Positions 1-34,305 of a stretch of DNA of 39,179 bases are shown here, piece by piece. Both the position numbers and the translations under genes were made by a program. Under the pieces are notes generated by a model that saw nothing but the letters and a program-made list of their open reading frames with translations, was not told the origin of the DNA and did not search any database. The DNA lies in sequence record NC_049342.1. One strand, given 5' to 3'. The DNA is from Escherichia phage 500465-1. Position 1 is the first letter of the stretch. Every line of letters starts with the position of its first letter.

Positions 1-4354
<4,354 letters not shown>

Positions 4355-4421
4355 TTAATAATACCAGGCATATCAGGCTGATGAACGTAAAAAATCGTTT
4401 TACATCAGTAAGATTATTATA

Positions 4422-4441
4422 TACTGTAAATATAAACAGTG
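4422..4441 (+). promoter_or_regulatory. LexA (SOS) box upstream of the tum-like/dinI-like genes
   Basis: TACTGTAAATATAAACAGTG fits CTGT-N8-ACAG; sits about 45 bp upstream of ATG 4483. Confidence 0.6.
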
Positions 4442-4482
4442 GTTATGCATACAGCATTGCGTGTGGTGTCATAGGAGGAAAG

Positions 4483-4671
4483 ATGCAGGACTATTTTTTG
4501 GAGTCTTTGAAGCTCCAGCGCATTGATTTTTTTCTTAAGCTTGTAGCGGCTAGTGAGTGTAGTGATGAAGAGAGGGGCTGGCTCTGCAGTGGGGTTTCTG
4601 AATTGACTGATGAACTCATGGCAAAAATCAGAACCCACGAATACAACCGCTCAATGGATGTCATCAGCTGA
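4483..4671 (+). CDS. Small SOS-regulated protein, possible Tum-like antirepressor N-terminal part (62 aa)
   Basis: ATG preceded by AGGAGG; downstream of LexA box; same frame as the following DinI-like ORF but separated by two in-frame stops. Confidence 0.45.
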   Translation: MQDYFLESLKLQRIDFFLKLVAASECSDEERGWLCSGVSELTDELMAKIRTHEYNRSMDVIS

Positions 4672-4695
4672 GGTGACTTTTATGCGCATTGAATA

Positions 4696-5013
4696 ATGAT
4701 CGATAAAGAGCAGAAGATTAGCCAGTCTACCCTGGACGCCCTTGAATCCGAGCTTTACCGCAATCTGCGCCCCCTGTATCCCAAAACGGTAATTCGCATT
4801 CGCAAAGGTAGCTCTAACGGTGTGGAACTGACCGGACTGCAACTGGACGAAGAAAGAAAACAAGTGATGAAAATTATGCAGAAGGTGTGGAAGACGACAG
4901 CTGGCTGCATTAAGAAACGTTGCTGGCGTCTGAACTTGCTTCTGGCGTCAGCAAGGTTGAACAACGAGCCCTTGCGAGGCGTTAGCTCTGTAGTGCATGT
5001 CTATGCCGCATGA
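4696..5013 (+). CDS. DinI-family protein
   Basis: STLDALESELYRNLRPLYPKTVIRIRKGSSNGVELTGLQLDEERKQVMKIMQKVW resembles E. coli DinI. Confidence 0.55.
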   Translation: MIDKEQKISQSTLDALESELYRNLRPLYPKTVIRIRKGSSNGVELTGLQLDEERKQVMKIMQKVWKTTAGCIKKRCWRLNLLLASARLNNEPLRGVSSVVHVYAA

Positions 5014-5048
5014 GATCGCATGATCGTTTGAGGATCGTTTTTGCTAAG

Positions 5049-5073
5049 GCCCGCCAGAACTGGCGGGCTTTTG
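5049..5073 (+). terminator. Rho-independent terminator after the tum/dinI module
   Basis: GCCCGCCA-loop-TGGCGGGC stem followed by TTTTG. Confidence 0.5.
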
Positions 5074-5214
5074 CGTAGATCATGCAGGTGCATGAAAACC
5101 ACTACATAAAGCGGGCAGGCGTGCGGGGATACGAGCGCGCGCAACAGGTAAACCCCTAGACTTGTTAAAATATTTGTCATATAAATCAAACATCAAACCT
5201 AAGGGAGGCAGAGG

Positions 5215-5643
5215 ATGATCCAGCCAAAAGTTTTTATATCCTATAGTTGGTCAAGTAAAACTCATCAGCAACATATCAAAGATATAGCTGAACGATTGGC
5301 GGCAGATGGAGTTGAAACTGTCATAGATATTTATGACTTGAAAGAAGGGGATGATAAAAATTATTACATGGAAAGAATGGTTCAAGATGAAACGGTTACG
5401 CATGTTTTAGTTATTTGTGATAAAAAATACTCAGAAAAAGCCGATTTAAGAAAAGATGGTGTCGGTGTTGAGTCGATGATAATTTCCCAAGAAATATATT
5501 CATCCGTGTCGCAGTCCAAATTTATACCATTAATATTTGAGTACAAAGATAATGGAGAGCCGTATACTCCAATCTTTCTGAAGTCTAGAATCTATATTGA
5601 TTTTCAACACCAGAAAAAGAAAATGATAATTGGGAACGTTTAA
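5215..5643 (+). CDS. TIR/SEFIR-like domain protein (N-terminal part; probably continues downstream across frame breaks)
   Basis: RBS AAGGGAGG before ATG; N-terminus MIQPKVFISYSWSS typical of TIR-like domains; AT-rich codon usage. Confidence 0.6.
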   Translation: MIQPKVFISYSWSSKTHQQHIKDIAERLAADGVETVIDIYDLKEGDDKNYYMERMVQDETVTHVLVICDKKYSEKADLRKDGVGVESMIISQEIYSSVSQSKFIPLIFEYKDNGEPYTPIFLKSRIYIDFQHQKKKMIIGNV

Positions 5644-6124
5644 TCAGGTTGCTTTATGGAAAACCAGAATTTACTAAGCCACCATTAGGTAAGCCTCCGG
5701 TTTATTTAGAGCAAGACACGTCAAAACCGACGTATGAAATTCATGCAAAATTTCAAACTTTAAAATCAGCTGTCTTAAATCAAAAGCAGACATTAAAGGA
5801 TTGCAGAAGGCAATTTTTAGAGGTGTGCCGAAATTATTGTATCTCACTACAAGTCGTAACAAACCCAAACTACTGAAGATTTTGCAGCGGAAGTTTTGCA
5901 AATTCATAAAGAGCTTATTGCCGTTAGGGATGCCATTACAGACTGGGTTTTTACTTGAGGGTGATACGCAGGGCGAAGACTTTTCCAAAGCACTATTACA
6001 GTTTATGGAAGTAATGTTAGCGATTAGAAATCGTCCGAAAAATGTAAATTCATATAATGAAATATGGTTTTTGCCCCATAAGATTTTTGCGTATGAAACG
6101 TTTTATATATTTTGGCGGCTTTAA
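5601..6124 (+). CDS. Probable C-terminal continuation of the TIR-like protein (or separate hypothetical genes), frame-interrupted
   Basis: Overlapping ORFs in three frames (5601..5876, 5860..5955, 5738..6124); frame 0 reads ENDNWERLIRLLYGKPEF right after the poly-A run at 5613-5623. Confidence 0.3.
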
Positions 6125-6205
6125 TAAAAAATTGAAGCTTTCCAGCATGTACATACATTACTGCATACATCTTATTTGCTACCCGATCATATAACCAGTC
6201 CGGGA

Positions 6206-6517
6206 ATGGAGTTTGCTAATTACAGTGAGTTATATTTAAGCTCTGATTACCTTCAAAGTAAATTGTCCCCTGAAAACTATCGACTGTATTCCCCTGTTGC
6301 TGAGTTAGTAAAGCAAAGTGCAACTAGAGATGATGTGTCTTTCGATGATTTGAAACAAGCTGATCTTGTTGCTCTTATGATATCCTTCATTAATCCCAGT
6401 ATTTTTGGTACCCGCAAATGTTGTTGTATTCCGGGCACTATGAGAAATATCCTCTATTTACAAGAGCAATACAGCATAGAGGATTCAGAGTATTGCAGTT
6501 ATTACCGGAATCGATGA
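6206..6517 (+). CDS. Hypothetical protein (103 aa) at the end of the AT-rich island
   Basis: ORF MEFANYSELYLSSDYLQ...; the frame is also open upstream from 6128 (TTG at 6176); no recognisable domain. Confidence 0.35.
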   Translation: MEFANYSELYLSSDYLQSKLSPENYRLYSPVAELVKQSATRDDVSFDDLKQADLVALMISFINPSIFGTRKCCCIPGTMRNILYLQEQYSIEDSEYCSYYRNR

Positions 6518-6654
6518 CAGTAAACTTTTGGCTCAAAAGCTGACAGAGGGTGAGGCCCAGCGAAATACTAGCAACTGGTATCATTTCGGTTTTAATAGAG
6601 ACTTTCTCAATCAAATGAATGTTAGTCGCCTAGATAGTATTGAATGAAAATTAG

Positions 6655-6680
6655 AGGGCGCTTTGCAAAGCGCTCTCTGT
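6655..6680. terminator. Hairpin between convergent cargo genes and portal gene (possible bidirectional terminator)
   Basis: AGAGGGCGCTTTGCAAAGCGCTCTCT near-perfect palindrome next to the Q stop. Confidence 0.35.
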
Positions 6681-6681
6681 A

Positions 6682-7720
6682 TTAGTTTTCAATATCTAAG
6701 GTGTAGGGCTCAAAGCGGATCACTTCTTCGCCCAGCCAGTCGTTAAGCTCCTGCAGTCGCTTCTGCAGCGGCATCAGCTCGTTGCGGACAAAGACGCGGC
6801 TGGCCTTTTCCACATCACCAAGCCGCCGTATTGTTGGGAATGATGCCCATCATCTGCGGCGGCACGCGGTGAGCAGCCATCATGTCATCACGGCTCACGT
6901 TCTTGATGTTCAGAAATTCATCCTTTGCTGCAACTTCCGACAACGGGATTATCTGGATGCCGTCCTTTTTACCGTTGGGCGAATACATAAACAGGTTGCG
7001 GAAGTTGCCCGGCCCTTTGGCGCTTTTCATTGCCTGGCGGATATTGTTCACGTCCTCCTGATTCTGTGCTGCGTCGGTCATGTACATGATGAAACCCGCG
7101 TGGCTGCCGTTGATGTAATACTTCCGGCGAAACAGCGTTGCTGACTCGTTGAGCAGGGTTGACGGGATGGCGGAGAGATAGCCGGGCAGCCCGTAAATCT
7201 CCTGATTAATATCCGGTTCCAGCAGATGAAAGATGTTGCCCTGCGTAAATTCATAGGGCTGCGTGGTCATGCCATACTGCACAAACCAGTAGGTGTCGAG
7301 ATCCACGCCGCGCCGTGTGTACTTCGCCAGTGCTGGCTCCAGCGAGAGAACGCCGCCGACCCGGTTGGTGCGCTTTTCCAGATAGGCGTTACCGAACACC
7401 AGATAATCCTGGACGAAACGGGCAAAAGCCTGCTGGCTGAGCAGGCGGTGCGGGATATAGGTACTGCTGAGAATGTCACGCTTAACGGCAATCGGTGAGC
7501 TGTGATGCACGGCGGCGCGATAGGTCCGCGCCAGTCCGTCAAAGCTCACCGGCGGTTCATACCAGCGATCCATCTGCACGCATTCCACGTAGTCCAGCAA
7601 TTCGCGTCGGTCTAACACCGGCACCGGGTCGCCAAAGCTGAACGCCTCTGCCGCAGCACCGCCTGAATTTGCGTTGTGATATACTGCTGCGCGGTTATTC
7701 TTGTTTTTACGTTTGCTCAT
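6682..7720 (-). CDS. Q: Portal protein (P2 gpQ homolog), one frame break near 6822-6832
   Basis: N-terminal 301 aa match P2 Q (FGDPVPVLDRRELLDYVECV...); C-terminus ...GDVEKASRVFVRNELMPLQ readable in the shifted frame to a stop at 6682. Confidence 0.85.
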
Positions 7721-8439
7721 GCCGCCTGCTCCTTGTCAGTCTGGGCCATTCGCACATAAACAGCATTTTCCAGTCCTCTGCTGATAACTCTTTTTTCATG
7801 TCATTAAGCCATTCATCATCAAAGAGCGCGGCTCCGGTTGCGAGCGTTGCCCCGGATGCTGCAGCGTCATCAGCGGTAAAATCATGCTGGTTGTGCTGTT
7901 GCGGGCAATCAGCTTCTTGTATTCCCGCCATGCTTCCGGGCTGGGGCTTGGGTGGTGTAGTAGGTAGCGTGATAGCGCGCGTGCATGGACAGGCTTTTGG
8001 CGAGCGCAATCATATTTTTCGGGGAGTCCGCCCAGGCATACTCTGACACATAGACGTTTCCATGGAGCGCGGCGGCGAGACTTTTCGGCCCGATAAAATA
8101 AATGACCGCACCGTTAGGTAGTTCCAGATGCGCTTTACCTGATTTTATTTTCCCAAGGTGTGTCCAGGTTGCGGCCTGATCTATAAAGGCTGACATATAG
8201 GTTTTGACTGTCAGGGCGGATGCCGGGGTGCAGCCAAGAAAAATCTGGTTGCGTCCGGTATGCAGTGCATCGTTCAGGGCTTCGTAGGCGAAAAAGAAAT
8301 CCGCGCCAGCCTGATGCATTTTTGTAAGCACACGGTTTCTGCTGCGTGCGCCGCTGTTCCATTCATGCTGGTAAGCAAAGAAAGGGCGATCTACAGGCAG
8401 GCTGGCGGTGGTCATGAGGTTAGTTGGGGTTGAGTGCAT
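7707..8439 (-). pseudogene. Terminase-large-subunit-like paralog fragment between P and Q
   Basis: Two overlapping ORFs 7909..8439 and 7707..8009; FFFAYEALNDALHTGRNQIFL and LFDDEWLNDMKKELSAEDWKMLFMCEW parallel P residues about 135-400; ATG overlaps P stop (TGATG). Confidence 0.5.
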
Positions 8440-30061: not shown

Positions 30062-30424
30062 TGGTGGAGCTGGCGGGAGTTGAACCCGCGTCCGAAATTC
30101 CTACATCCTCGGTACTACATGCTTAGTCAGTCTTTACATTCGCTTGCCAGCTGCGGACGGACACGCCACTAACAAACTAGCCTGATTAAGTTTTAACGCT
30201 TCAACCCCAGGCAGGGCTTCCACGCGATCTCTTTTGGGTTTGACCTCTCTTGATCCCCGTCCTAAGAGCGGAGGCTAGGGAGAGAGGGCTCTAAGCAGGT
30301 TATTAAGCTGCTAAAGCGTAGTTTTCGTCGTTTGCGACTATTTTTTGCGGCTTTTTACGAGGCCAACCGCCCCTCGGCATGCACCTTGGGTTTCGCAAAT
30401 CCCGTCGAATCCAGAATCAGCCCC
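30062..30424 (-). ncRNA. ssrA: tmRNA (SsrA)
   Basis: Reverse complement reads GGGGCTGATTCTGGATTCGACGGG...GGGTTCAACTCCCGCCAGCTCCACCA, the E. coli tmRNA. Confidence 0.95.
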
Positions 30425-32560: not shown

Positions 32561-34222
32561 TTACGCTGCAAGCAGTTCTTTCGCATTCGCCAGTGTATTA
32601 CGTGTGACTTCACTGCCACCAAGCAGGCGCGCCAGCTCTTGTAACCGCGCTTTTTTATTCAGGGATTGCATATGCGTTTCTGTCATCGCACCATCGGTTT
32701 CTTTGCTGACAAAATAGTGTTGATGACCACATCCCGCGACTTGTGGCAGGTGGGTAACACACATCACCTGAGTTGATTCGCCGAGTTGACGCAGCAGTTT
32801 GCCGACAACTGCCGCTGTTGGACCGCTAATCCCTACATCCACTTCATCAAAAATCAGTGCCGGGGTTTCCATTTTACGCGCCGTGATGACCTGGATTGCC
32901 AGTGCGATGCGGGACAATTCACCACCGGATGCGACTTTGGCAATAGGCTGCATTGGCTGACCTGGGTTGGTGGTTACCCGAAACTCAATACGATCGGCAC
33001 CGTCAGCGCCCAGGTGATGCTCGTCAAATTTAACATCGATCGTAAACTGCCCATGCGGCATTGAGAGCGCATGCATACTGTCGGTGATCAGCTGTGCAAG
33101 TTCTTCTGCATATTGCTGGCGTTGTTGGTGTAATGCGCGCGCGATTTCCAGTGCCTGCTGATGATGTTTCGTTACCGCCAGCGCAAGCGTTTCTTGTGAG
33201 TCGGCCTGATCGTCCAGTTGCTGCTGTTCTTCCAGTAGCGACTGGTAATACTGTGGCAATGCCTCAGGGCTGACGTGATGTTTACGTGCCAGCGAAATCT
33301 GTTTTGAGATGCGCTGTTCAAGTTCAAATAGTCGGTTGGGATCGAGATCCAGACGATCGCAGTAGTGGCGCAGTTCATCGCTGGCTTCAGCAATCTGGAT
33401 GGTAGCTTCTTCCAGCATATCAAGTACGCCGGACAGTTTGCTGTCCATGCCAATCAATTCGCTCACCAGTTGTTTAGCCGTGTAAAGCTGACTTTGCAGG
33501 TTTGCGTCTTCACCGTCGGCCATTAATGCCAATGCATTCTGGCTGGTGGTCAGCAATTGACCGCTGTTCGCCAGACGTTTGTACTCTTCGTCGATTTGTT
33601 CAAACTCTCCGGGCTGCGGATTAAATTCGTTAAGTTCTTTTAATTGGTATTGCAGCAGTTCCGCACGGGCAGCGCGTTCCTGACTTAACTGTTGATGATG
33701 CGCGAGGTCACGGCAGCTTTGATGCCACAACTGATAACGTGCTGTCATTTCCTGGAGTAGAGAGGTTTCATTGGCATAGCCATCAAGCAGGAACTTTTGG
33801 TGCTCGGGTTTGGTGAGTAACTGATGAGCGTGCTGACCATGGATCTGAATCAGCAACTGACCCAGTTCGCGCAGTTGTGACAGAGGAACAGCTGTACCGT
33901 TGATGAAACCACGGGAGCGACCATCGCTGCTGATCACGCGACGAAGCAAACATTCATGCCCGTCTTCAAGCTGGTTTTCTTCCAGCCAGCGCAGAGCCGC
34001 TGGCGTATCTTTCAGAGAAAAACGGGCGCACAGGTCAGCGCGAGCAGCGCCGGTACGCACCATGTCGGCTTCAGCGCGACCACCGAGACAAAGACCGAGG
34101 GCATCTATTGCAATAGATTTACCCGCGCCGGTCTCGCCAGTTATTACGGTCATGCCGCTATGAAAATCAATCTCAAGCTCACGAACGATAGCAAAGTTGC
34201 TGATGGTCAGTTGTGCCAACAT
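32561..34222 (-). CDS. recN: DNA repair protein RecN
   Basis: 553 aa; N-terminal Walker A GETGAGKS. Confidence 0.95.
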
Positions 34223-34246: not shown

Positions 34247-34266
34247 TTACTGTTATTGTGTACAGT
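34247..34266 (+). promoter_or_regulatory. LexA box in the recN promoter
   Basis: TACTGTTATTGTGTACAGTA (CTGT-N8-ACAG); a second, one-base-short box follows at 34271-34285. Confidence 0.6.
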
Positions 34267-34305
34267 ATAAACTGTTTTATATACAGTAAAGAGGCTGGCG
34301 TAAAA

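Follow-up and report, generated by a model that had tools for sequence, protein, structure and literature searches.

A predicted Fels-2-type SOS antirepressor module with separate tumA- and tumB-like genes in a P2-family prophage of Escherichia

Introduction

Induction of coliphage 186 through LexA, the p95 promoter and sequestration of the CI repressor by Tum is in routine use (PMC7708051). The 186 sequence record annotates p95, a LexA site and a tum product that "inhibits CI DNA binding", together with a separately initiated C-terminal DinI-like product, Tum95.5, which arises from internal starts and "modulates SOS induction". Lemire et al. (2011) described Tum as a fusion of an antirepressor with a DinI sequence and pointed out that tum is split in two in the phages Fels-2 and PSP3 (PMC3121763). 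For PSP3 the antirepressor activity is placed in the upstream gene, a second-hand statement given there as a personal communication (PMC3121763). The same paper cites Bunny, Liu and Roth (2002) as having attributed the lethality of a Salmonella lexA null to Fels-2 (PMC3121763).

The sequence records of the two split systems carry corresponding annotations. In PSP3, tumA is described as "similar to 5' end 186 tum; UV induction of prophage" and tumB as "similar to dinI and 3' end of 186 tum", and the DinI protein of Fels-2 is annotated as similar to PSP3 TumB. A search of the literature on TumA and TumB by name found nothing relevant. The Gifsy-type GfoA/GftA operons (PMC3121763) follow a like logic, in that a LexA box is combined with a dinI homologue and with a small antirepressor that binds a non-cleavable repressor; in these operons, however, dinI comes first, the phages are lambdoid and the repressor belongs to another family.

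Here we compare these systems with a locus of Escherichia phage 500465-1 (NC_049342.1); the whole stretch of 39,179 nucleotides that was analysed is referred to as the window. We consider it very likely that the locus is an SOS operon of a Fels-2-type (186-like) P2-family prophage, for which we propose a mechanism running from LexA through a TumA-like antirepressor to CI.

Results

Genomic context and the CI repressor

The window begins inside the replication gene A, which ends at 4329 and is interrupted at 2184-4132 by an IS100 element with a 7-bp target duplication. The module (Table 1) lies directly 3' of gene A, as it does in Escherichia coli S88, phage vB_EcoM-813R9 (813R9), E. coli 504211, Fels-2, PSP3 and 186, and the order gpA, LexA box, 62-aa gene, dinI-like gene, cos-proximal cargo and portal gene Q is the same in the window, S88, 813R9, 504211 and Fels-2 (NC_010463; genes STM2728 and STM2726.1). 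Beyond the module are a bSEFIR defence gene and the portal, terminase, head and tail genes, with portal and terminase on the minus strand. A tmRNA gene at 30062-30424, which is the only Rfam match in the window (the module region itself has none), marks the attachment site, and the Fels-2 prophage similarly adjoins ssrA. Fels-2 differs in its cargo, a 732-nt gene (the same length as orf97 of 186) and one other gene where the window has the bSEFIR gene, in its Salmonella rather than E. coli host, and in that the gpA of the window is disrupted by IS100.

The initial annotation had assigned the module to the 186/Fels-2 type rather than to that of P2. A non-inducible P2-type layout with a C repressor, in which gene A is followed by orf91, tin and old with no LexA box and no tum or dinI, was not found in the window. 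In P2 itself, orf91 overlaps the end of A; it was considered as a possible DinI or Tum relative and rejected, its translated sequence being, by inspection, unlike both ORF62 (the 62-aa gene) and DinI.

Table 1. Sequence features of the module in the window.
Feature	Position	Strand	Description
Putative LexA-repressed promoter	4399..4427	+	-35 TTTACA 4399-4404, 17-bp spacer, -10 TACTGT 4422-4427
LexA (SOS) box TACTGTAAATATAAACAGTG	4422-4441	.	17/20 match to consensus TACTGTATATATATACAGTA
tumA-like gene (ORF62), candidate antirepressor	4483..4671	+	ATG 4483, TGA 4669-4671, 62 codons
tumB/dinI-like gene	4682..4913	+	ATG 4682, TAA 4911-4913, 77 codons in intact relatives
Strong hairpin in 3' untranslated region	4920..4954	+	11-bp stem, no U-tract; from folding
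Intrinsic-terminator-like stem-loop	5048..5072	+	GGCCCGCCAG-AACT-CTGGCGGGCC-like GC-rich stem, then TTTT

The immunity region lies 5' of the window start and is missing from the window, and the CI gene is visible only in the sibling prophage of E. coli 504211. Within the first ~19.7 kb, 24 single-base indels (discussed below) are all that sets this sibling apart from the window; it has the same IS100 insertion and carries intact tumA and tumB genes. Its prophage genes include int, CI, an Apl-like gene, CII and Fil, and its tail-fibre genes are annotated with an internal stop or as incomplete. The sibling CI shares 93% identity with its Fels-2 counterpart and, over the full length, 30% with the CI of 186, so cross-reactivity with the 186 system is not expected. 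It matches the Pfam families Phage_CI_repr and Phage_CI_C, with no match to the S24 peptidase, and a CI of this kind, without a self-cleavage domain, would need an antirepressor to respond to SOS. The CI of PSP3, at 286 aa, has a duplicated N-terminal domain.

LexA box and promoter

The initial annotation had proposed a LexA box, a Tum-like 62-aa ORF, a DinI-family ORF and a terminator, and the comparisons in this and the following sections bear out each of these parts, with proteins that are near-identical to those of Fels-2. The LexA box is located 41 nt 5' of ORF62. The strict pattern TACTGT-N8-ACAGT, expected 0.00 times by chance (100 shuffles), occurs at only two sites in the window, namely the box of the module and 34248-34267; the loose core CTGT-N8-ACAG was seen 3 times against 0.69 expected. 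The second strict site is directly 5' of a 553-aa ORF that NCBIfam identifies as RecN. As recN is a textbook SOS gene, this site serves as an internal positive control for the strict pattern. No base of the module's box changes among four aligned relatives and Fels-2, whereas the adjacent intergenic bases vary, and a LexA box lies 18-41 nt 5' of the tumA-like start in all six of the divergent P2-like phages examined.

By analogy with the annotated p95 of 186 (TTCACA-18-TACTGT), a putative promoter can be read from the sequence, with the left arm of the LexA box as its -10 hexamer. A TTyACA hexamer is found 17-18 bp 5' of the LexA box in 186, the window, ESSI2_ev015 and Cronobacter ESSI-2, and the PSP3 counterpart, TTCCCA at 18 bp from the box, matches the annotated p95 geometry. 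A scan with a stricter promoter consensus called no site, the -10 hexamer TACTGT being too weak for its rule.

The tumA-like gene

ORF62 is preceded by a ribosome-binding site (AGGAGG at 4473). Once corrected for the indels described below, its product is the 62-aa protein WP_001154434.1, which is 98.4% identical to Fels-2 STM2728, one residue apart (S62N). Its family consists of stand-alone proteins of ~62 aa found in Escherichia, Salmonella, Klebsiella, Enterobacter, Pectobacterium, Kosakonia and other genera.

BLASTP of ORF62, in both its window and its corrected versions, against 186 Tum and PSP3 TumA gave zero alignments, but profile methods do link ORF62 to Tum. A profile of 34 diverse ORF62-family members, collected by searching 1.84 billion representative proteins, aligned with 186 Tum in hhalign at 95.3% probability (E=2.1e-8), with residues 4-46 on 4-46. 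ORF62 matches phrog_698 (3.6e-38), and the N-terminus of 186 Tum (residues 1-69) matches the same family at E=5.7e-6, residues 6-44 falling on profile positions 6-44; phrog_8554 is also matched by both. Two homologues act as intermediates that join ORF62 to the Tum N-terminus in a pairwise chain: the "tum protein" of Yersinia phage vB_YenM_06.16-2 matches ORF62 at 35% identity and the 186 Tum N-terminus at 46%, and for the Cronobacter ESSI-2 homologue the values are 43% and 33%, respectively. The motif common to ORF62 and Tum is roughly h-x-R-I-x-h-h-x-R-L-x(5)-C-x(4-5)-[KR]-E-h-A-L-x-W/L-h-A-E-h. By profile comparison, ORF62 and the N-terminal (antirepressor) part of 186 Tum are homologues.

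The AlphaFold model of the ORF62 product is predicted to be a two-helix hairpin (pLDDT 89.6). A Foldseek search of the PDB with this model retrieved generic helical hairpins only, all with E-values of at least 1, and a search of the PDB by sequence gave no match. ORF62 has no Pfam or NCBIfam family match and is annotated as "hypothetical protein" everywhere, and phrog_698 is labelled "unknown function".

The dinI-like gene

A separate ribosome-binding site (GAGGTGA at 4670) serves the dinI-like gene, whose intact product runs from MRIEIMIDKEQ... to ...VWEDDSWLH. The corrected protein is WP_001217575.1, 100% identical to Fels-2 DinI. Pfam DinI (PF06183) matches residues 14-76 at E=6.6e-23 (81.3 bits against a cutoff of 24.2), and the protein also matches phrog_189 and the DinI structure PDB 1GHH (2.7e-6). 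It reaches 42.7 bits with the NCBIfam DinI equivalog, for which the cutoff is 111 bits, and this places it as a paralogue rather than the host dinI. Against 186 Tum it shows 41% identity over Tum residues 71-145.

Indels and the frame of the dinI-like gene

Positions 4350-5100 were aligned with E. coli 504211, E. coli S88 and phage vB_EcoM-813R9 (98.8-99.5% identity), and the module of the window was found to have four single-base indels that are unique to it. Two of these, a missing A at ~4572 and an extra G at ~4591, lie in ORF62 and compensate each other, garbling six codons in between (EKGLALQW becomes ERGWLCSG). The other two are deletions that break the dinI-like frame, one of an A in GAAATAATG at ~4691 and one of a G in TGGGAAG at ~4888.

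A comparison of the first 20 kb with 504211 turned up 24 single-base indels in the window, 20 of them deletions and 4 insertions, and 0 substitutions. All 24 fall within 1133-7949, none over the next 12 kb, and 22 of them are in runs of identical bases. Given this clustering, the lack of substitutions and the preference for homopolymer runs, the indels, including the frameshift in tumB, are most likely a local assembly error of the unpolished long-read/homopolymer type and not mutation. Frameshifted genes between ~1.1 and 8 kb of the window should accordingly not be taken as pseudogenes. If the indels of the window were nevertheless real, TumB would be a pseudogene here and TumA would lack W37, which is invariant in its family.

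The initial annotation had described a 105-aa DinI ORF (4696-5013) that shares the frame of ORF62, with two stop codons between them. This is literally true of the window but is an artefact of the two dinI-like deletions; in intact relatives the dinI-like ATG lies 10 nt past the ORF62 stop, in a different frame. It had also left open whether the split into two ORFs was real or due to indel errors. The errors exist, but they affect the dinI-like frame and six codons of ORF62 and are not the cause of the split, which we regard as real in view of the separate ribosome-binding sites and its retention in 738 E. coli genomes.

The 3' end of the module and its prevalence

Folding of 4905-5085 gave z = -3.5 relative to shuffles. 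The similarity of some relatives to the window ends just past the dinI stop (query position 524) or past the first of the two hairpins (585-587), which puts that hairpin at the boundary of a variable region. The second stem-loop, with its short T run, is conserved in S88, 504211 and phage 813R9 and fits the terminator of the initial annotation; an automated terminator scan missed it on account of its short tail of 4 T. Of 5426 complete E. coli genomes, 1144 (about a fifth) contain the module, and in 738 of them coverage of the module reaches 80% or more.

Discussion

Judged by these comparisons, the locus is an ordinary Fels-2-type SOS antirepressor module of an already known kind. The anatomy of the module, its near-identity to Fels-2, the homology of its products to both halves of Tum, the conservation of the box and the 186-type CI of the sibling can all be read from the aligned sequences. 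The two-gene split is, on the same comparative grounds, genuine, and corresponds to the published tumA/tumB arrangement (PMC3121763; PSP3 record). The module resembles that of PSP3 in having a small upstream gene and a 77-aa DinI-like tumB, with a LexA box in front and the replicase gene before it, and in aligned sequences PSP3 TumB is closely like the DinI-like protein of the window. PSP3 TumA, at 60 aa, is beyond BLASTP detection from ORF62 and gives a weak hhalign match (9.8%, P=0.003), and the PSP3 genes are in frame with a single stop between them, whereas a gap of 10 nt and a change of frame separate those of the Fels-2 type. With 186 the module shares a LexA box that overlaps the -10 hexamer, its place just 3' of gene A, a 186-type CI as seen in the sibling prophage and, in 186, a partial terminator after tum; it differs in that 186 has both parts in one 146-aa ORF rather than in two genes.

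How such a module may work can be proposed by analogy with the literature on 186 and, as reported at second hand (PMC3121763), on PSP3 and Fels-2, from which LexA control, the binding of CI by TumA and the role of the DinI-like protein are taken. In an undamaged cell, LexA would sit on the box and, as the box overlaps the promoter -10, would keep the operon silent. Upon DNA damage, RecA would become active, LexA would cleave itself and the operon would be transcribed. The TumA-like two-helix protein of 62 aa would then bind the 186-type CI, which has no self-cleaving peptidase domain, keep it off its operators and so release the early lytic promoter. TumB, the 77-aa DinI-like protein, would act on RecA filaments and not on CI, tuning the SOS signal, and the terminal stem-loop would end most transcripts.

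Other readings of the locus can be set against this one. Since 186 holds both parts in one ORF, and since the window contains indel errors and shows the two ORFs in what happens to be a common frame, one could suppose that they are the remains of one fused tum gene of the 186 type, coding for ~146 aa and broken by mutation or by sequencing error. We regard this as extremely improbable and, by comparative data, as refuted. The window has no single ORF of ~146 aa holding both parts but two cistrons with their own ribosome-binding sites, the error-free relatives have the two genes in different frames with a separate ribosome-binding site and ATG for the second, the two-cistron layout is also that of Fels-2 and of the 738 E. 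coli genomes mentioned above, and PSP3 has separately named tumA and tumB genes. Moreover, the tumA-like gene occurs without a dinI-like partner in Yersinia phage vB_YenM_06.16-2, ESSI2_ev015 and Cronobacter ESSI-2, and the search of 1.84 billion representative proteins returned no N-terminal match within a protein of ~146 aa. No fused Tum-like protein of that length was present among the top 120 close relatives of ORF62 or among 86 representatives, and the longer entries among its relatives are N-terminally over-called ORFs or chimeric fragments. A decaying prophage in which the frameshifts are real, the dinI-like gene is a pseudogene and TumA is crippled is a reading that we hold to be highly improbable. 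The concentration of 24 indels without a substitution in one stretch, followed by 12 kb with none, is the signature of error, and the sibling with the same IS100 keeps tumA and tumB intact; these observations outweigh, in our view, the split gpA, the broken or incomplete annotation of the sibling's tail-fibre genes and the fact that the four indels fall on conserved residues, the invariant W37 included.

It is also very unlikely, although not to the same degree, that the operon is nothing but an SOS-regulated dinI paralogue, with ORF62 an unrelated small or leader ORF and induction of the prophage taking some other route. The absence of a Pfam or NCBIfam match, the uninformative names of ORF62 and its PHROG and the lack of a solved structure or informative fold match would all be compatible with such an ORF. 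ORF62 is, however, related by profile to the functional half of Tum and co-linear with it from residue 4, it has the position (behind a LexA box and next to gpA) that tumA-like genes have in common across six divergent phages, and its protein is strongly conserved across genera. A sibling CI that depends on an antirepressor for its response to SOS likewise argues against a dinI paralogue on its own and for the SOS operon with a TumA-like antirepressor that we prefer.

The initial annotation had called the prophage likely SOS-inducible. The 186/Fels-2-type module speaks in favour of this, but with gpA split by IS100 the most to be expected of the switch is derepression of early genes, without a phage yield. 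The prophage is to be seen as replication-defective, and its productive induction is unlikely.

P2-like phages have a defence hotspot between gpA and gpQ, at whose left edge the tum operon lies. The bSEFIR defence gene is on the same strand as the operon and starts 142 nt past the terminator with its tail of four U, and the 186 record marks t95a as "partial termination", annotates read-through for orf97 and states that orf97 "blocks 186 infection". Partial read-through of the terminator could in the same way put the bSEFIR cargo under SOS control, a suggestion that we make as a speculation and think unlikely to hold. If it were true, DNA damage would raise anti-phage immunity at the time when the prophage decides on leaving. 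The two main papers on the gpA-gpQ hotspot make no mention of SOS, LexA or tum. The gene that comes next after dinI is read from the other strand in several relatives, and with cargo orientation thus mixed, SOS co-transcription of cargo cannot be general; control of the hotspot cargo by SOS as a rule is not supported by these comparisons.

The finding is by itself of little weight, as a published regulatory module has been re-identified, and the position of this SOS operon at the edge of the hotspot is only a mildly new angle. Nevertheless, the antirepressor half of the module (the WP_001154434.1 family, phrog_698) is unnamed in RefSeq, PHROGs, Pfam and NCBIfam, and transfer of the name "TumA-like antirepressor" to this family would improve many annotations, given that roughly one in five complete E. 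coli genomes carries the module.

Sequence quality and the state of gene A

Comparison of window positions 1133-7949 with the sibling genome of E. coli strain 504211 revealed 24 single-base indels and no substitutions; 20 were deletions and four insertions, and 22 of the 24 lie in homopolymer runs. The reading frames of gpA, IS100, tumA, tumB, the bSEFIR gene and the portal/terminase region are all broken by these indels. From position 7950 to approximately 19700, no indels relative to strain 504211 were found. On this sequence comparison, the assembly appears to be locally unpolished across window 1133-7949.

An IS100 element, flanked by a 7-bp target duplication, lies inside replication gene A; strains 504211 and 503440 share this insertion. 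Because IS100 interrupts this gene, the prophage is replication-defective.

Coordinates of features surrounding the tum operon
Feature	Position	Strand	Remarks
IS100 (IS21 family)	2184-4132		istA/istB on minus strand
Hairpin, 11 bp, strong	4920-4954	+	no U-tract; just 3' of the dinI-like stop
bSEFIR anti-phage defence gene	5215-~6650	+	gpA-gpQ hotspot cargo; PADLOC, Pfam
Additional 241-aa ORF	~7715-8439	-	flanked by portal Q and terminase ATPase P; counterpart in compared sequence L004, 16730-17455
ssrA (tmRNA gene)	30062-30424	-	Rfam 295.8 bits; ARAGORN tag ANDENYALAA
recN	32561-34222	-	nadK adjoining
LexA box TACTGTTATTGTGTACAGTA	34248-34267		near-perfect; upstream of recN

Host flank

The LexA box upstream of recN is host SOS regulon DNA, and it served as an internal control for the LexA-box search in the window. 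The gene ssrA separates the prophage from the recN region, a location consistent with the prophage lying next to the tmRNA gene.

The tum locus in related phages and the adjoining hotspot

In three other P2-like phages, Yersinia phage vB_YenM_06.16-2, Escherichia phage ESSI2_ev015 and Cronobacter phage ESSI-2 (compared sequences L008, L009 and L010), gpA is followed by a LexA box and a tumA-like gene, and the dinI-like partner of that gene is absent from all three. The tumA-like ORF of Cronobacter ESSI-2 is wholly missing from the annotation.

The 241-aa ORF between Q and P is annotated as a 'terminase large subunit domain-containing protein'; its product shares only 31% identity with residues 145-368 of the neighbouring P. 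Unlike the window, Salmonella phage Fels-2 lacks this ORF, and Q there abuts P. The ORF is a divergent, truncated paralogue of the terminase ATPase.

The bSEFIR gene shares its strand with the tum operon and begins 142 nt downstream of the terminator. Its product was matched to bSEFIR by PADLOC (1.2e-102), and Pfam assigned SEFIR and TIR_2 to the N-terminus. Many E. coli relatives cease to resemble the window either just before the hairpin that follows the dinI-like gene (query position 524) or just after it (positions 585-587), and in other relatives a 0.7 kb cargo gene separates dinI from the terminator region. This hairpin may mark a recombination boundary of the gpA-gpQ hotspot, the variable cargo and defence region of P2-like phages.
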